A DNA stretch of 61,633 nucleotides. Origin: Candidatus Omnitrophota bacterium (lineage in GTDB: Bacteria; Omnitrophota; Gorgyraeia; Duberdicusellales; Duberdicusellaceae). The notes beneath the pieces are model-generated. The model was not told the origin of the DNA and made no database searches. It saw only the letters and a list, made by a program, of their open reading frames with translations. A program made the translations under genes and the position numbers. Of the stretch, positions 2,127-61,633 are shown piece by piece; position 1 is the first letter of the stretch, and each line of letters begins with the position of its first letter. Location of the stretch: contig JAGGWS010000067.1 of NCBI GenBank assembly GCA_021163425.1, positions 1-61,633 on the forward strand, written 5' to 3'.

Positions 2127-2336
2127 GAAGGCGGGCGGGGGAAATATAACAAAATTTATTGCTATAGCAATTAAATTTGTTAACATTTGTTTTGGGCTGA
2201 GATTTTCTTATCAAAGGTTTTTTCTTCTTTTCAACAAAAATTCTTAATATGTTGTTACAATAACAAAATGTTAAAAATAATTACTACAATAAAATGTTTT
2301 TCAGCCTGGTTTTTGCAGGAAATACACTTCATCCTA

Positions 2337-3136: not shown

Positions 3137-3216
3137 ACGTTAAAACGTATGAACGTGTGAACGTATAAACGTTAAAACGTGGGAACGTATAAACGTTAAA
3201 ACGTGGGAACGTCTCC
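3137..3216 (-). repeat. Mosaic repeat locus B: 10-unit ACGT-core octamer array (O module)
   Basis: ACGT at 3137+8k for k=0..9 with exact phasing. Plus strand reads ACGTTAAA ACGTATGA ACGTGTGA ACGTATAA ..., the reverse complement of ACGTTYAY. Contains a 24-bp higher-order repeat (ACGTATAA ACGTTAAA ACGTGGGA, twice). Confidence 0.9.
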
Positions 3217-6765: not shown

Positions 6766-7653
6766 TTAATTTTGGTAAAGCCAGCAGGCTACTTTTCTAC
6801 CTTCCTTTAAAAATAAAGGAGGTTGATTTTGACAAATATTCATCTTAAAAACACACCTGTCTCTAAAAATACAACCTTCTTCTGGAAAATCTTCTTCTAA
6901 ACTCAAAGAAAAATCTCTTTTAGCTGAACTTACTAAAAGCTGAGAATAAGGGTGTAAAGGTTTTTTAAGAATATCAGAAGTTGGGCCTTCTTCTACTACT
7001 TTTCCCTTATAGATTACTAATAAATCCTCAGTTATGTAAGAAAGAAGACCTAAATCATGAGAGATAAAAATATAATTTATCTTAAGCGTTTGCTTTATCT
7101 TTAAGAGGTTGTCTATTATCTTCTTAGAAACTACTACATCTAAGTTAGAAGTGGGCTCATCTAAAATTAAAACTGAAGGATAAGATGCTAAAGCTCTGGC
7201 TATAGCTACTCTTTGACACTGGCCTCCGCTAAGCTGAGAAGGTAACCTATCTATTAAAGAAAAGGGAAGTTCTACCAAAGAAAGTATTCTCTCTAGTTCT
7301 GCTCTCTGAGAACTTAAGCCCTGATAATAAAGAACTTCTTTTAATGCTTTTCCTATTCTCATTTTAGGGTTTAGGGAAGTATAAGGATTTTGAAAGATAA
7401 GCTGGACTTTTCCTTTTTCCAATAAATTACCCTGGTAAATTAAATTGCCTTCTGAAGGTTTAATCAAACCTACCAATATCTTAGCTAAGGTAGATTTGCC
7501 TGAACCACTTTCTCCAGCAATCCCTAATATCCGCTCTTCTGACAAAAGAAAACTCACCTTGTTTAAAGCTTTTATAAAAAAAATCTGCCAGCCTCTTCTT
7601 AATTTAAAGGTTTTAGAAAGAGCTTCTCCTTTTATAAGAAAGTTCTTGCTCAT
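6766..7653 (-). CDS. Oligopeptide/dipeptide ABC transporter ATP-binding protein (OppF/DppF type)
   Basis: Walker [10 protein letters not shown], signature [15 protein letters not shown], Walker B LILDEPTS. 4-nt overlap with the upstream ATPase gene. Confidence 0.85.
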
Positions 7654-12971: not shown

Positions 12972-12984
12972 CTTTCTAACCTCG

Positions 12985-13104
12985 CACTTTTTATTTTCAA
13001 AACATTTTGTCAAGTTTTCACGTTTTCACATTTACACGTTTTAACGTTCATACGTTTATACGTTTTAACGTGACATTTTCTTTTCAAAAGATTTTGTCAA
13101 GTTA
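12985..13104 (+). repeat. Mosaic repeat locus C (pgk-tpiA intercistronic): palindrome half-unit, 7 octamers, degenerate palindrome
   Basis: TTATTTTCAAAACATTTTGTCAAGTT (about 12990-13015). ACGT at 13020+8k for k=0..6 (the k=1 unit is ACAT). Then AACGTGACATTTTCTTTTCAAAAGATTTTGTCAAGTTA (13067-13104). Confidence 0.85.
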
Positions 13105-14289
13105 GGAAGTTTTATCAGGAATAGCTGAAATACCTGGCAATTCTTTGCCCTCTAAAAACTCTAAAGAGGCTCCTCCACCAGTAGAAACCCAGGAAAGTTT
13201 ATCAGCTACTCCAAATTTCTTGGCTGCACTTGCTGAATCCCCTCCTCCTACTACTACTAAAGCTTCTATTTGGGTTAAAAATTCAGCTATTTCTCTGGTG
13301 CCTTGAGAATATTCAGGGTTTTCAAAAATTCCTAAAGGACCATTCCAGAGAACGGTCTTAGCCTGAGAGATTATTTGTTTATACTTCTCTATAGTTTCAG
13401 GACCAATATCCACACCTTTATATCCTTGAGGAATATCCACAGATTGGCTAAACTTTTTGGTTTGAGGCTTTTCTATATCTTCTACACATAAATGGTCAAG
13501 AGGGAGAAGAATCTCTACCTTTTTTTCTTTTGCCTTTTCAAGAATATCTTTAGCTAACTCTAATTTGTCTTCTTCAACCCGAGAAGCACCTACTTCTATG
13601 CCCTGAGACTTCAAAAAGGTATAAGCCATTGCTCCGCCGATTAGAATCTTATCTACCTTCTCTAACAAATTCTCCACTACCCCTATCTTGTCAGAAACCT
13701 TTGCTCCTCCCAAAATAGCTATAAAAGGTTTCTGGGAAGCTTGAGAAACTTTACTCAAATAATTTATCTCCTTCTCCATTAGAAACCCTATACAAGAAGG
13801 CAGAAACTTAGCAATAATTGTGGTAGAAGCATGGGGTCGGTGGGCTGTTCCAAAAGCATCATTTACATAGATATCAGCTAAACTGGCTAATTCCTGGGCA
13901 AAATTTTCATCACCAGCTTCCTCCTGAGGATAAAACCTTAGATTCTCTAAAAGGATTACCCTTTTATCAGTATTTTCAATAGCTTCTTTTACCTTTTCTC
14001 CTCTACAATCATCCAATTTCTCAACTTCCTCACCTAAAAGTTCTGAAAGCCTCCCTGCCACTGGACCCATCCTTAATTCTTCAACTACTTTTCCTTTAGG
14101 CCTTCCTAAGTGGCTCATTAAGATTAATTTCTTTACACCTTTATCTAAAAGATATTTTATTGTCTCTAAAGCTGAGATTATTCGAGAATCATCTTCAACT
14201 TTACCTTCTTTTAAAGGAACATTAAAATCTGCCCTCATTATAACTCTTTTATCTTTAAAATCAAAATCTCTAACTGTAAGCTTAGCCAT
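13102..14289 (-). CDS. pgk: Phosphoglycerate kinase
   Basis: RADFNVP, GGAKVSDKI, STGGGASLEFLEGK. SD AGGAGGGAGGA. The stop codon lies inside the right arm of a palindromic repeat unit. Confidence 0.95.
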   Translation of the reverse strand: MAKLTVRDFDFKDKRVIMRADFNVPLKEGKVEDDSRIISALETIKYLLDKGVKKLILMSHLGRPKGKVVEELRMGPVAGRLSELLGEEVEKLDDCRGEKVKEAIENTDKRVILLENLRFYPQEEAGDENFAQELASLADIYVNDAFGTAHRPHASTTIIAKFLPSCIGFLMEKEINYLSKVSQASQKPFIAILGGAKVSDKIGVVENLLEKVDKILIGGAMAYTFLKSQGIEVGASRVEEDKLELAKDILEKAKEKKVEILLPLDHLCVEDIEKPQTKKFSQSVDIPQGYKGVDIGPETIEKYKQIISQAKTVLWNGPLGIFENPEYSQGTREIAEFLTQIEALVVVGGGDSASAAKKFGVADKLSWVSTGGGASLEFLEGKELPGISAIPDKTS

Positions 14290-26382: not shown

Positions 26383-26590
26383 GTAACTTGACAAAATACT
26401 TTGAAAGTAAAATGTCAAGTTAGCGTAACTTGACAAAATACTTTGAAAGTAAAATGTCAAGTTAGCGTAACTTGACAAAATACTTTGAAAGTAAAATGTC
26501 AAGTTACGGCTATGTGTTACGTTAAAACGTATGAACGTGTGAACGTAAAAACGTGAGAACGTGAGAACGTATAAACGTGAGAACGTGACA
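26383..26590 (-). repeat. Mosaic repeat locus D: 9 octamers + three tandem palindromes (inverted relative to loci F/G)
   Basis: GTAACTTGACAAAATACTTTGAAAGTAAAATGTCAAGTTA units start at 26383, 26425 and 26467 (period 42). ACGT at 26519+8k for k=0..8. Confidence 0.9.
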
Positions 26591-43884: not shown

Positions 43885-43915
43885 TATCAAAATCAAATTT
43901 TTTGAAGCCTTATAT

Positions 43916-43978
43916 TAACTTGACATTTTACTTTCAAAGTATTTTGTCAAGTTACGCTGGTGATTGGTTATTGGTTCA
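43916..43978 (+). repeat. Mosaic repeat locus E: one palindrome + three heptamers
   Basis: TAACTTGACATTTTACTTTCAAAGTATTTTGTCAAGTTAC (43916-43955), GC, then TGGTGAT TGGTTAT TGGTTCA (43958-43978). Confidence 0.85.
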
Positions 43979-52626: not shown

Positions 52627-52655
52627 ATCTTACCAAACCAAGCCCTTCTCGTCAA
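52627..52655 (-). promoter_or_regulatory. Putative sigma70-type promoter of the purB operon, leaderless geometry
   Basis: Minus strand TTGACG(52655-52650)-N17-TAAGAT(52632-52627)-N9-ATG(52617). No SD. Confidence 0.55.
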
Positions 52656-52731
52656 ATAAAATAAGCCAAGAAAATTGTCTATCGGCTTCGTCTGTTGGTT
52701 TCGGCTGAGTATCCCTGCCTGCCGTCTTTTA

Positions 52732-52929
52732 ACGTTCACACGTTCATACGTTCATACGTTTATACGTTTATACGTTCACACGTTCACACGTTTTAACGTT
52801 CACACGTTCACACGTTTTCACGTTCATACGTTTTTACGTTTATACGTTTATACGTTTATACGTTTATACGTTTTAACGTAACACATTATTTTGAAAACAT
52901 TTTGTCAAGTTACGCTGGTTATTGGTTAT
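52732..52929 (+). repeat. Mosaic repeat locus F: 19 octamers + degenerate palindrome + two heptamers
   Basis: ACGT at 52732+8k for k=0..18 with no phase slip (ACGTTCAC/ACGTTCAT/ACGTTTAT/ACGTTTTA variants). ACGTAACACATTATTTTGAAAACATTTTGTCAAGTTAC (52876-52913). TGGTTAT twice (52916-52929). Confidence 0.92.
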
Positions 52930-53047
52930 TTATCTCTTTTTAAATAGCTCAAAAAGCCTTCTTTAAAAGAAATAGGGTAAGTTAAAAATGGTGTAATGGA
53001 AAACCTAAACTTAAAATAAACCAAGGCAGGTTTATATTTTTAAGAAA

Positions 53048-59409: not shown

Positions 59410-60503
59410 CTTTTTAAAAAAAAGAAACTCTTTTCTTTTCTGCGGATACTCTCTTTAAATTCTAAAATTCTTTCCCGAGGAATTAAATACTCTCTATCAG
59501 TTAAGGCTTCTATCTGAAAACCATGCCTTAACGACAATCGGAAAATCTCCTCAGCCTTCTCTAAGGAAAAATCTTTACCTAAAGAATAGTTCTCAAATCT
59601 ATCTTCTAAAAATAGAGTTAGAGGCTCAGCCATACAGGGGAAGCACAAACCTTCAGGAAGACCAAAATTAAAGTTGAACTGAGGCTTGCCTGGAGGCCTC
59701 ATAGCTACACCGTCTATTACCAAAACATCTTTTCTTAATGAAACTATCCTGCGAGGATAGGAGGCATCAAGAATTATTGTGCCTTTTCTCAAATATTCTA
59801 AATTAAACCCAGAAGGAATCCTGTTGGTAGTTATCGCTATAAAATTGACCCATTTAAGGATATACTTAAATCTACTGCCAATAGATTCTACCTTCTTCTT
59901 CACTCTTAAAGGGAGTAACCCTTTCATTTCTTCTAGTTTCTCTTTGTTCCGAGAATAGATATAAATTTTCTTTGCAGAATTCCCTAATTTTGAAATTAAG
60001 AAAAAAGAAAGGGGATTTAAACCAAAAATAAGAAAAACCATTTCTTCTAAATTATAGTGGGCTTCTCTTAAAGCTCTTAATACAGCTTCCGGCAGAGTAG
60101 CAATAGTTAAATGATGCCCGGTAGTTATTGGAATATTCAAATACTCTTTAAGCCTTGAACCTCTTTCTCCTATTAAAGCTGTATAAGCAACTAAACCTAA
60201 CAAATTTATACCTCTGTTTTCAGCAAATTTAGCTGCCCTTTTAACTTTAAAAAATATCTTGCGGGGATTTAAAGAAACCATCTGTTCTGTGAGTAAAGGA
60301 CACATTATTAATTCTCCTTTAACTTCTTTTCCGTTATGTTGAGATTTTATCCCTTCTATATCTGAAGCTTTAAAAGGACTCATCCATTCCAAAACCTTCT
60401 TTACTATACTTATGGATTTAGCTCTCATACCTGGTTCATATAAATAGAGAAGCTCCCGGTTTACAGGATGGATAAGAATTGCCAATTTCTTATTATCCAT
60501 CAC
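59388..60503 (-). CDS. Divergent AAR-like protein lacking the dinucleotide-binding glycine motif
   Basis: Collinear with 825-1823 and AAR (ILIHPV, LVAYTALIG, TTGHHLT, CFPCMAEPLTLFLE, YSLGKDFSLEKAEEIFRLSLRHGF). IIGAGGSIGS is replaced by IFGLNPLSFF. Confidence 0.65.
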   Translation of the reverse strand: MMDNKKLAILIHPVNRELLYLYEPGMRAKSISIVKKVLEWMSPFKASDIEGIKSQHNGKEVKGELIMCPLLTEQMVSLNPRKIFFKVKRAAKFAENRGINLLGLVAYTALIGERGSRLKEYLNIPITTGHHLTIATLPEAVLRALREAHYNLEEMVFLIFGLNPLSFFLISKLGNSAKKIYIYSRNKEKLEEMKGLLPLRVKKKVESIGSRFKYILKWVNFIAITTNRIPSGFNLEYLRKGTIILDASYPRRIVSLRKDVLVIDGVAMRPPGKPQFNFNFGLPEGLCFPCMAEPLTLFLEDRFENYSLGKDFSLEKAEEIFRLSLRHGFQIEALTDREYLIPRERILEFKESIRRKEKSFFFLKRWLDLKK

Positions 60504-60939
60504 TCTCTAAAGCTTGCTTTACAGCCTGGAGAAAACTCTTCCACATTACTCTGGTCTTCTTCTCTAAAACTCTTTTTACATAAGGTTCAAGAATGGGTAT
60601 GCCCCAGTCATAATTTACTTTGAGTTCTAATCTTAACTTATTTCTCCTGGTAGGAGTTATTCTCCAGTAACCAAAAAAATCTCCAAAATCTCCACTGCGC
60701 ATCTTAAAATTTATAAGCCCCTTCTCCCTATCTAAAACATCCTCTTCATACCAGGAAAGAGTAGCTCCTTCTATATCCACTTCCCAGCGGGTGTAAAGCT
60801 TATCTTTCTCTTTCCTAATCACCTTAAGAGTTTTTATTTTATCTGCCTTCCTCAACAAAGAAGCAGGATTATCCCAAACAGAAGATAAATCTCCAACTTC
60901 AGGCTGGTTGATATAGATTTTTAAAAATAAGGAATACAT
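60493..60939 (-). CDS. SRPBCC (START/polyketide-cyclase-like) ligand-binding protein
   Basis: 148 aa. Size and pattern (W..W.V...G..L.W.E...D) resemble polyketide_cyc2/SRPBCC. Overlaps the downstream AAR-like gene by 11 nt. Confidence 0.55.
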   Translation of the reverse strand: MYSLFLKIYINQPEVGDLSSVWDNPASLLRKADKIKTLKVIRKEKDKLYTRWEVDIEGATLSWYEEDVLDREKGLINFKMRSGDFGDFFGYWRITPTRRNKLRLELKVNYDWGIPILEPYVKRVLEKKTRVMWKSFLQAVKQALESDG

Positions 60940-60947
60940 TTTATTTT

Positions 60948-60976
60948 ATTATATTACAAATAAAAGAAGGTGTCAA
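60948..60976 (-). promoter_or_regulatory. Consensus sigma70-type promoter, leaderless geometry, of the SRPBCC-AAR-like-coaBC-rmuC-cobB operon
   Basis: Minus strand TTGACA(60976-60971)-N17-TATAAT(60953-60948)-N8-ATG(60939). No SD. The ACACCGGTGT palindrome abuts the -35 element. Confidence 0.65.
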
Positions 60977-60992
60977 AACACCGGTGTAACCC

Positions 60993-61213
60993 TCGTTTTT
61001 ACGTTCACACGTTCTCACGTTTATACGTTTACACGTTTATACGTTCATACGTTTATACGTTTATACGTTTATACGCTCATACGTTTACACGTTTTAACGC
61101 AACACATTATTTTGAAAAGATTTTGTCAAGTTACGCTAACTTGACATTTTACTTCCAAAGTATTTTGTCAAGTTACGCTTATTCCTGGTTCCTGGTTACT
61201 GGTTACTGGTTAA
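60993..61213 (+). repeat. Mosaic repeat locus G: about 13 octamers + two palindrome units + four heptamers
   Basis: ACGT (two units ACGC) at 61001+8k for k=0..12. AACGCAACACATTATTTTGAAAAGATTTTGTCAAGTTAC (61096-61134). TAACTTGACATTTTACTTCCAAAGTATTTTGTCAAGTTAC (61137-61176). TGGTTCC TGGTTAC TGGTTAC TGGTTAA (61186-61213). Confidence 0.92.
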
Positions 61214-61633
61214 GAATATAGCAATTAAACTTACCCCAATTATTAGAAGGATATAGGGAAAAGAGAAAGTTGCCTTAAGAGGAGTTACTTTTTTAAAATA
61301 AGGGCTTTTATAGAGATAAGTTATATCATTTTCAAATATTTTTTCCCATTTAAATCTCTGAACATACTTCTCCAAAATTAGGTCTTTTTTCTCAGGGAAC
61401 AAAGATTTAACCCAGATAATTATCCTGGAAGCTGAGTAAGGAGCAAAATTAAAAAAGGGGTTTACTTCTCCAAATATAGAAGTAGAAATTGCCCTGTTGA
61501 CAATACTTCCTAAAAGAACAGCTACTATTTTATTATTAGAGGCAATTATATCCTGAGAATCACTATTCTCTAAAATAATCTTCTTAAGAGGAAAGAAAAA
61601 CTTAGGATAAGTAAATTCTCTAAACTCTAAAAA
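61196..61633 (-). CDS. Hypothetical protein with C-terminal TM anchor (3' part only; CDS enters from beyond the window end)
   Basis: Manual translation shows the frame of ORF 61196-61402 stays open upstream to base 61633 (FLEFREFTYPKFFFPLKKIILENSDSQDIIASNNKIVAVLLGSIVNRAI...). The last codons (LTSNQ*) are encoded by the TGGTTAC heptamer repeat. Confidence 0.5.
   Translation of the reverse strand, partial: FLEFREFTYPKFFFPLKKIILENSDSQDIIASNNKIVAVLLGSIVNRAISTSIFGEVNPFFNFAPYSASRIIIWVKSLFPEKKDLILEKYVQRFKWEKIFENDITYLYKSPYFKKVTPLKATFSFPYILLIIGVSLIAIFLTSNQ

Follow-up and report, generated by a model that had tools for sequence, protein, structure and literature searches.

The window examined here is a 61,633-nt stretch of DNA from Candidatus Omnitrophota bacterium (contig JAGGWS010000067.1), which carries at seven intergenic sites a family of repeats assembled from three kinds of sequence. 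The first is a palindrome that we term H, with the form TAACTTGACA-N19-TGTCAAGTTA, comprising two 10-bp arms flanking an N19 core that is itself palindromic. The second, termed O, is an array of phased octamers containing ACGT, and the third, termed 7, is an array of the heptamer TGGTTAY. The genes of the window are almost all on the minus strand, and those flanking the sites are ordinary housekeeping genes (pgk, tpiA, purB, an ftsH-like gene, and the genes of a LacI-family regulator and a solute-binding protein). On the evidence presented below, H is probably a palindrome of the repetitive extragenic palindrome (REP) type, belonging to a Y1/HUH transposase of the REP-associated tyrosine transposase (RAYT) or TIRYT (tyrosine transposase associated with terminal inverted repeats) kind, with O and 7 being young satellites derived from its arms.

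There are 11 H palindromes in the window, located at six loci. Ten match the pattern GTAACTTGACA-N19-TGTCAAGTTAC with three mismatches or fewer, compared with none in 100 dinucleotide-preserving shuffles, and the eleventh, which has a degenerate left arm at 61096, was recovered with a shorter pattern. The 9-mer AACTTGACA occurs 20 times in the window, in each case within an H or an H remnant; as it never occurs singly, a DNA uptake sequence of the Neisseria or Pasteurellaceae type was rejected. There are in addition three TGGTTAY arrays and five phased octamer arrays, and the pattern (ACGTN4)x4-ACGT is found at 32 overlapping positions within the five arrays and nowhere in the shuffles. Tandem Repeats Finder gives 18.4 copies at 52728-52873, 12.6 at 60994-61094 and about 7-8 at each of 3143-3204, 13010-13071 and 26533-26588, together with TGGTTAT/CTGGTTA repeats at 43958, 52916 and 61185. 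The seven-site family of the original prediction therefore exists, and direct reading of the sites agrees with its O unit counts and with the nested inner palindrome and T:T or A:A bubble that it described in H.

Site 1 contains H only, as three tandem copies on the plus strand (1996-2036, 2041-2081 and 2086-2126) with a 45-bp period, the linker AGCC and the T-rich bubble on the plus strand; the fold as single-stranded DNA (ssDNA) has z = -9.3. Site 2 contains O only. Its ten octamers (3137-3216, minus strand, reading AACGTNNN on the plus strand) end 7 nt before the -35 box (TTGACA, 3224) of the ftsH-like gene. At site 3 an array of ∼7 octamers (13017-13071, plus strand) lies between two copies of H. 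One of these is decayed (12980-13016, plus strand), with the right arm TGTCAAGTT intact at 13008-13016 and the left arm degenerated into the Shine-Dalgarno region of tpiA. The other (13065-13105, plus strand) has the left arm AACGTGACA, and its terminal TAA (minus strand, 13102-13104) is the stop codon of pgk. Site 4 comprises three identical tandem H copies on the minus strand (26383-26507; 42-bp period, A-rich bubble on the plus strand, ssDNA fold z = -12.7) and an inverted array of nine octamers (26519-26590, minus strand), the H-side end of which, TGTGTTACGTT, is the reverse complement of the arm-like AACGTAACACA. Site 5 contains H and 7 only, i.e. a single H (43915-43955, plus strand; ssDNA hairpin -9.1 kcal/mol, z = -5.6) with TGGTGAT TGGTTAT TGGTTCA (43958-43976, plus strand) immediately to its 3′ side.

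Site 6, the focal site, is located between tRNA-Met and the purB promoter. It has 19 octamers of the form ACGTTYAY (52732-52883, plus strand), then a palindrome with the mutated left arm AACGTAACA (52873-52913, plus strand) that we call H*, the fold of which is no better than those of shuffled sequences (z = -0.7), and then two copies of TGGTTAT (52916-52930, plus strand). Site 7 has ∼13 octamers (60994-61094, plus strand), followed by an H* and an intact H (61136-61176; the pair spans 61096-61176, plus strand) and four copies of CTGGTTA (61185-61212, plus strand). The left arm of this H*, AACGCAACA, is the same derived variant as that at site 6. The fixed order O, H, 7 and the fixed polarity that had been proposed hold once strand is taken into account, since sites 2 (3137-3216) and 4 (26383-26590) are on the opposite strand, but all three modules are present at sites 6 and 7 only. 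An 83-codon open reading frame (ORF; 60969-61221, plus strand) arises wholly from the repeats of site 7 and is likely to be a false gene call. On the minus strand close to these two sites there are promoters TTGACA-N17-TATAAT and TTGACG-N17-TAAGAT (60947-60976 and 52640-52670, respectively), positioned only ∼8-10 nt from the start codons of the gene at 60493-60939 and of purB, so that the mRNAs of both genes would be leaderless or nearly so.

The anatomy of H was derived from 120 aligned copies. In the arms, T+AACTTGACA and its complement, pairing and conservation are at 94-100%. They are followed by three positions on each side (9-11) that are not complementary above chance and are unpaired, while the inner positions 14-17 are complementary in 87-97% of cases, compared with 33-52% when partners are shuffled, using two to four types of base pair each. 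Beyond the arms, the nearest two or three bases show modest pairing (48-49% versus 27-35% at positions -2 and -3), and the ends of H read (G/C/T)TAAC...GTTA(C/G/A). As ssDNA the intact H folds with a free energy of -9 to -10 kcal/mol and z of about -6. The core is near-uniform inside each genome and different among genomes, while the arms are invariant; examples are TACTTTCAAAGTA in the window, GTCAATGAC in the single-amplified genome AM-311-J02, CGAGTATTACTCG in KR11 and AAGGTTGAACCTT in CSMAG_1507. Such a distribution of variants is what concerted evolution produces.

Scanning one genome per GTDB species with AACTTGACA-N19-TGTCAAGTTA, exact in both arms, matched 92 stretches. Eighty-six of these fall in 22 species-level assemblies, and the other six are singletons in unrelated taxa. 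Thirteen of the 22 assemblies are labelled Omnitrophota or Omnitrophica, the rest being Planctomycetia, Elusimicrobia or 'uncultured bacterium', and the family is structured and restricted by lineage, as had been suggested. In the window and the 86 stretches no copy of H lies inside a real ORF. The location at operon boundaries that had been proposed is borne out to the extent that H is strictly intergenic, but a special preference for such boundaries was rejected, because the orientation of the flanking genes (71 co-directional, 10 divergent and 6 convergent) equals the background of the same loci (501/31/32). The stop codon upstream of H is close (median distance ∼5 nt) and the start codon that follows is farther off (∼40-50 nt); the terminal TAA of TAACTTGACA itself closes an ORF of 80 codons or more in 23 of 119 copies, pgk and transposase genes among them. 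The sense strand carries the A-rich form of H 31 times and the T-rich form 16 times; as this bias is slight and the copies are not independent, a strand link of H to transcription was rejected. Copies also form tandem blocks with linkers of 1-5 nt (AGCC, GC and CGC).

Several familiar classes of element were considered and set aside. H generates no target-site duplication (direct duplications of the flanks with k = 3 were observed three times versus 1.5 expected, and none with k = 4-5), which argues against a miniature inverted-repeat transposable element (MITE). A clustered regularly interspaced short palindromic repeat (CRISPR) array is excluded, as the original prediction had it, because the O units are contiguous and the H copies only 1-5 nt apart, with no unique spacers. 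An intrinsic terminator, one of the roles originally suggested, does not fit, since the stem of H is A+T-rich and only 1 of 238 hairpin sides has six or more T in the next 8 nt. The TTGACA hexamers in H face inward and lack a -10 box at 16-18 bp, so they were not taken as promoters. Only two tRNAs pass the Rfam gathering threshold in the window, the best score at the focal site being 25 bits versus gathering thresholds of 84-100, and an E-value-based Rfam search likewise found no family for H, O or 7. A search of the literature on Omnitrophota palindromes, octanucleotide repeats, short tandemly repeated repetitive (STRR) sequences or the literal sequences found nothing relevant.

The nature of H is indicated by the genes that it flanks. 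Two ORFs bracketed by two H copies, at L035 2192-3076 and L071 4289-5179, encode IS200-like Y1 transposases (Y1_Tnp, PF01797; E = 3.8e-8 and 2.8e-12, respectively). In NCBIfam they are matched best by NF047646, the model for REP-associated tyrosine transposases. The proteins carry in addition a C-terminal helix-turn-helix (HTH) domain at residues ∼250-290, with matches to HTH_7, HTH_38, HTH_23 and HTH_28 and a weak match to Sigma70_r4_2 (E = 0.009). There are 1,397 homologs at E <= 1e-10, about 285-305 amino acids in length (∼290), from records of Omnitrophota, Elusimicrobia, WOR-3 and 'PVC group'. Most are found on 1-5 contigs, and the L039 genome has a paralog. H is present on both flanks of the gene at all five loci that can be read on both sides (L035, L071, L093-95, L096 and L229/L230), and the homolog of Omnitrophota QNCO01000074 has two H copies on each side. 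In other clades the gene is flanked by other palindromes, as seen in L098 and L039. The homolog on an Elusimicrobia contig has TAACTTTACA-N19-TGTAAAGTTA on both flanks, that of WOR-3 has AAACTACACA-N19-TGTGTAATTT, and the L039 paralog (Y1+HTH) has AACGCAATACGCAACA-N19-TGTTGCGTATTGCGTT. The arms change along with the enzyme, while the arm-N19-arm plan stays.

A copy of the gene, P0015, belongs to the window's organism itself and is found on two contigs. One of these, JGI contig Ga0187538_155984, overlaps the right end of the window at essentially 100% identity, and arithmetic on the coordinates places the gene ∼28 kb beyond the window. A single H precedes P0015 and two follow it; their core, AATAACTTTCAAAGTAAAA, is the window's own variant, and the stop codon of the gene falls within an H. 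In 44 homologs the HUH motif (N69, H70 and H72) and the tyrosine motif Y129-I-H-L-N-P are invariant. A fold search was needed because a sequence search of the PDB found nothing. The AlphaFold2 model of the transposase has a mean predicted local distance difference test (pLDDT) score of 87.8 and a helical C-terminal domain. Its top Foldseek match is 4ER8_A, the Escherichia coli RAYT on its REP hairpin (E = 1e-6, TM 0.72), superposing with a root-mean-square deviation of 2.1 Å over 140 columns, and the next are the TnpA structures of IS608, IS200 and ISDra2 (2VJV, 2F4F and 2XMA) with E of about 1e-4. The association of H with the transposase is held with high confidence. The original prediction had ruled out REP-type repeats, a view overturned by the presence of H on both sides of a Y1/HUH gene at five loci and by the match of the fold to a RAYT-REP complex. 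It had also ruled out an insertion sequence (IS) or MITE, finding no transposase; the lack of target-site duplication stands, but a transposase exists, including the organism's own copy. IS remnants lie near H or the transposase gene in places, with an rve fragment beside two H copies (L047 2081-2272) and a DDE_Tnp_1 gene ∼0.5 kb from a Y1 gene (L229 5031-6326).

The system has much in common with the REPtrons of E. coli and Pseudomonas (4ER8; PMC3116915, PMC6006769). In both the repeat is a short, extragenic, imperfect palindrome that is dispersed and also forms tandem clusters, a Y1/HUH gene is flanked by its own type of repeat, the sequence of the repeat tracks the transposase clade, and there is no target-site duplication; the closest structural match is also to a RAYT-REP complex. 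The differences are that H has no GTAG/CGTC tag and that its tandem copies are direct repeats, that its 10-bp arms are invariant across the phylum with only the core being genome-specific, whereas classical REPs are species-specific throughout, and that the linked protein of ∼290 amino acids has a C-terminal HTH and scores under the NCBIfam equivalog cut-off. In bacterial interspersed mosaic elements (BIMEs) REPs alternate in orientation and are joined by defined linker motifs. Like the BIME clusters of E. coli, H forms several palindromic units per spacer with short linkers (AGCC, GC and CGC), but as direct tandem units. Recognition of a DNA hairpin by a Y1/HUH enzyme is found also with the subterminal hairpins of the IS200/IS605 family (IS608 and ISDra2), to whose transposases the fold is matched (2VJV, 2F4F and 2XMA). 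Unlike these, H is not the end of an IS, and it is far more numerous than the transposase gene (1-2 contigs per protein).

The HTH domain points to a particular branch of the transposase family. TnpA-REP proteins have been split into subclasses, of which 2.1 has a C-terminal HTH (Bac_DnaA_C, HTH_23 or HTH_28-like); automatic and manual searches found no REP-like sequences near subclass 2.1 genes, and the subclass was taken to be the same as the TIRYTs that Di Nocera et al. described in 2013 (Quentin et al. 2018, PMC6006769). TIRYT genes are flanked by terminal inverted repeats, many of them with GGGGWSAS, some of which are self-complementary, and some moderately abundant families are arranged like REPs as dimers or clusters (Di Nocera et al. 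2013, PMC3733652). The present system shares with the TIRYT/TIRtron (PMC3733652; subclass 2.1, PMC6006769) the long Y1 protein with a C-terminal HTH and the flanking of the gene by inverted repeats that may be self-complementary and in dimers or clusters. No GGGGWSAS motif was found in the H flanks of the transposase genes, and whereas no REP-like repeat was found beside subclass 2.1 genes (PMC6006769), the flanking repeat here is clearly a hairpin, of which each genome has tens of copies with exact arms. H and its gene fit a known arrangement, in which a Y1+HTH gene lies between copies of a dispersed palindrome of its own, the kinship of the protein being judged by domains and fold.

While H is shared by many assemblies, O and 7 are not. 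Neither ACGT-octamer arrays nor TGGTTAY were found beside H in the loci of the 22 other assemblies, and both are missing from the orthologous sites of B32_G15, a metagenome-assembled genome (MAG) that is 90-92% identical to the window over blocks of 6-8 kb. The idea of a three-module element as a unit fails for these reasons, and O and 7 are species-specific, hypervariable satellites. Orthologous positions were compared at sites 3 and 4; at site 5 synteny with B32_G15 is lost, which rules out a comparison there. In the pgk-tpiA spacer (site 3) of B32_G15 two H copies are joined by ACGGCTTT, where the window has a 42-nt O insertion, and at site 4 B32_G15 has two H copies and unique sequence, where the window has three H copies and an O array. 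The break in synteny is located exactly at site 5 (∼43892-43915 versus L059), and H may be a hotspot for insertion or rearrangement.

The arrays can be compared between assemblies. That of site 3 is identical across three assemblies, that of site 6 is identical in ENA assembly L222, and that of site 7 is reproduced base-for-base in the window and four ENA/Logan assemblies from different runs; this agreement between independent assemblies argues strongly against the assembly artefact raised at the outset. In the JGI assembly (3300017593) of the same strain, site 7 comprises ∼18 rearranged units, versus 13 in the window, within identical flanks. This array turns over much faster than its surroundings, with a small chance remaining of a graph error in that one assembly, and O thus behaves as the variable-number tandem repeat that had been guessed.

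The satellites are probably derived from the arms of H, judging from sequence resemblance. In the window O always lies on the same side of the T-form of H, and four of the five arrays directly adjoin either an H or an arm-like motif, sharing one relative polarity. The last octamer at sites 4, 6 and 7 is ACGTAACA or ACGCAACA, which is the arm AACTTGACA with two substitutions, and the site 4 array ends in the AACGTAACACA motif. Sites 6 and 7 share the derived H* arm, indicating that the O-H* junction was copied as a unit. TGGTTAC/TGGTTAY resembles the arm end AAGTTAC. A comparable relationship is seen in L039 (MAG Maj_2_bin.4; 266-320, 1205-1345 and 6943-7022), where the arms of the paralog's palindrome are two ACGCAAY heptamers and the same heptamer builds an 11-copy array beside an H copy 6 kb away. 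In B32_G15 other short repeats flank H, namely TTTTCAA heptamers, CG-containing heptamers of which ATAAACG and CCGATAG are examples, and octamers like ACGAATAT.

Arrays of ACGTT octamers are also found in at least 120 metagenome contigs of 23-70% GC that are not related to the window. The query was selected for this motif, so the result shows only that the arrays are not unique to the lineage. The arm-derived origin of O is no more than plausible, because these contigs almost all lack H. A first count of array orientation relative to the downstream genes gave 13:3, but a stricter test gave 19/18/19 and an orientation bias was rejected; ORF calls in the high-GC contigs are unreliable. Related satellites are found on individual metagenome contigs. 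In L118 (10805-10852) a 48-nt array of ACGTT octamers lies in frame within a glycosyltransferase-like ORF, in L151 (6700-7160; a contig with a GC content of 56%) TGGTTAT-like heptamers followed by AACNTTCA octamers lie on both sides of a tRNA gene, and in L121 (4980-5160), from an Omnitrophota relative, an array of AACGT octamers passes directly into (GA)TTGGTTT repeats.

Some parallel to O and 7 may exist in cyanobacteria. Mazel and colleagues reportedly described there, in 1990, STRR sequences made of intergenic heptamers in short tandem arrays. These are intergenic arrays of 7-8-nt units like O and 7, and the unit TT(G/T)GTCA of STRR2 resembles TGGTTAY, but the phylum is different from that of the window. 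STRR sequences are not known to be linked to a palindrome or a transposase, nor are octamer arrays with an ACGT core known among them.

A mechanism for the system can be modelled on those of E. coli TnpA-REP and of IS608 and ISDra2. When single-stranded, for example during replication, H would fold into a hairpin in which a 3x3 bubble separates a 10-bp stem, formed by TAACTTGACA and TGTCAAGTTA, from a short inner stem. The transposase would recognise this hairpin and cut and rejoin the DNA beside it, and events of this kind could have spread H over many intergenic spacers, frequently right at a TAA stop codon, and built up its tandem blocks. One variant of the core would be kept uniform in each genome, while the arms, being read by the protein, would stay fixed across the phylum. 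In this species O and 7 would have expanded as short tandem repeats from arm-like sequence located 5′ and 3′ of H, and may sometimes have been copied along with H as a composite. Hints that bear on mobility are the uniform core of each genome, the presence of three H copies versus two at an orthologous site and the occurrence of the derived H* at two loci.

A number of observations weigh against a transposase-borne palindrome with arm-derived satellites. No cleavage, excision or new insertion has been observed. Current mobility is moreover unproven because the positions of H are conserved between species at both of the orthologous sites that can be compared, and it is accordingly held with lower confidence than the association with the gene. 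Complementarity of the core reaches the single centre base (92% at positions 17:19), which a hairpin does not need and a duplex site read by a dimer would. The ends of H have no GTAG or CGTC tetranucleotide tag of classical REPs, NF047646 scores only 54.1 and 60.2 bits against the L035 and L071 proteins, under the equivalog cut-off of 80, and phmmer of the transposase against the PDB gave no match. As regards the satellites, short tandem repeats number 19 near H versus 62 elsewhere, and an enrichment near H was rejected as unconvincing, being confounded by the intergenic location of H. Only 2 of the 120 metagenome array loci have any match to a relaxed H pattern, and a linkage of these arrays to Y1 genes was likewise rejected, a single weak Y1-like tblastn match in 630 kb lying ∼1.6 kb from its array.

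The symmetry of the core brings in the possibility that H is mainly an operator in duplex DNA. Here a dimeric HTH protein, possibly a domesticated Y1-HTH, would bind the TTGACA arms 28 bp apart and regulate or insulate adjacent promoters, with tandem H and O units acting as iterated binding sites. This would account for arms that are invariant in 22 assemblies while the core drifts, for an N19 that is fixed even where the arms differ, and for core symmetry extending to the centre base. H is often followed within a few nt by a canonical TTGACA-N17-TATAAT promoter, three O arrays stop 7-75 nt short of a downstream -35 box, and the C-terminal domain has weak HTH matches including that to Sigma70_r4_2. 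Yet H occurs equally in convergent, divergent and intra-operon spacers and often overlaps stop codons, a regulon would hardly be able to change the core of all its sites jointly in each genome, and the N-terminal domain keeps all its catalytic residues, implying that DNA is cut and not bound alone. We consider it unlikely that this is the main function of H, and it is compatible with a transposase-borne palindrome as an added role. A little less likely still is that H acts mainly as a hairpin in RNA, between cistrons or at a 3′ end, as an exonuclease stop, an RNase III cutting site or a mask for the Shine-Dalgarno sequence, with its spread being secondary. E. coli REPs stabilise upstream mRNA, as in the case of malE-malF, and the hairpin of H is stable (z about -6), lies a median of ∼5 nt from the upstream stop codon, supplies the TAA stop in 23 of 119 copies, and has modestly pairing flanks that on the 3′ side are G-rich and Shine-Dalgarno-like. 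An RNA element would not be expected in both orientations relative to transcription (31 versus 16), nor in ten divergent spacers; there is no U-tract (1 of 238 sides) and no Rfam match, and the innermost complementary pair cannot form in a hairpin. This account also leaves unexplained the presence of H on the flanks of transposase genes and the change of the arms from one transposase clade to the next.

For O there is a separate question of whether it is connected with H at all. The arrays could be an independent element that merely lies beside H, such as a methylation or restriction cluster at ACGT or a promoter spacer subject to phase variation. ACGT is concentrated in the arrays (55 of the window's 65 sites), while CpG is depleted elsewhere (observed/expected 0.38), the length and content of the arrays differ between assemblies of one strain, and similar arrays occur in contigs ranging from 23 to 70% GC, hardly any of which has H close by. 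However, they are missing at orthologous sites of a relative with ∼91% identity, so a conserved function tied to those genes is not indicated, and four of five lie directly against H or an H-like arm, their relative polarity being the same. Metagenome arrays have no orientation bias to downstream genes, and because the metagenome query chose the motif, its frequency there says nothing about its being special. An independent O thus seems rather improbable, and it is highly improbable that the long arrays are artefacts of short-read assembly. The different site 7 array of JGI 3300017593 and the difficulty of assembling near-identical 8-mers would be consistent with an artefact, but three assemblies agree on site 3, two on site 6, and the window and four ENA/Logan assemblies on site 7, and the units are heterogeneous enough to anchor k-mers. 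Several palindromes of 4 bp are strongly avoided in the window, with observed/expected ratios of 0.12 for CTAG, 0.15 for GATC, 0.35 for GTAC and 0.44 for CATG, which suggests restriction-modification pressure.

Promoter-like sequences are found next to H at some loci. The conserved module aatgttaacaa..TTGCTA-N16-TATATT, ∼75 nt in length, is placed ∼20 nt upstream of arrays of H, and a transcript from it would run directly into the hairpins. The window has one copy (2146-2190, minus strand), which reads into the H triplet of site 1, and the module is present at five loci of B32_G15 (L017 77, L060 77 and L075 1737 on the plus strand, L024 and L029 on the minus strand). At window site 4 the orthologous module has an 18-nt deletion that takes out the -35 box. 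The module could be the promoter of a small RNA or the end of a larger composite repeat. In L042 (4210-4260) a CIRCE-like inverted repeat, TAGCACTC-N9-GAGTGCTAA (left arm 8 of 9 bases), is located just after a TTGACA promoter that directly follows H, placing H upstream of a promoter of the heat-shock type.

REP/RAYT systems have been studied mostly in Proteobacteria, as populations of sequences inherited vertically within genomes. The present results add Omnitrophota to the range of such systems and, for palindromes with different arms, Elusimicrobia and WOR-3, and the HTH-bearing Y1 subclass, for which the 2018 survey (PMC6006769) reported no such repeat, gains a clear hairpin. The kind of system is already known; new are the sequence of the repeat, the host phyla and the unusual clarity of the hairpin. 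In practical terms H marks intergenic spacers and supplies stop codons, which aids annotation, it breaks short-read assemblies, and the O arrays can serve as strain markers. The traits that set the system apart are arms that are invariant across a phylum, the fixed N19 spacing and satellites that resemble the arms. As a long shot, the HTH might read the arms, with their resemblance to a -35 box (TTGACA), as duplex, and cutting and rejoining at the foot of the hairpin might 'stutter', laying down arm-derived octamer and heptamer arrays that lie immediately upstream of promoters and vary between strains. If true, a domesticated transposase would be a generator of contingency loci, i.e. tunable arrays upstream of promoters, in an uncultured, host-dependent phylum. 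More generally, the combination of invariant arms, a variable core and a fixed N19, with the arms shifting along with the clade of the enzyme, constitutes a natural experiment on the recognition of DNA by these transposases.

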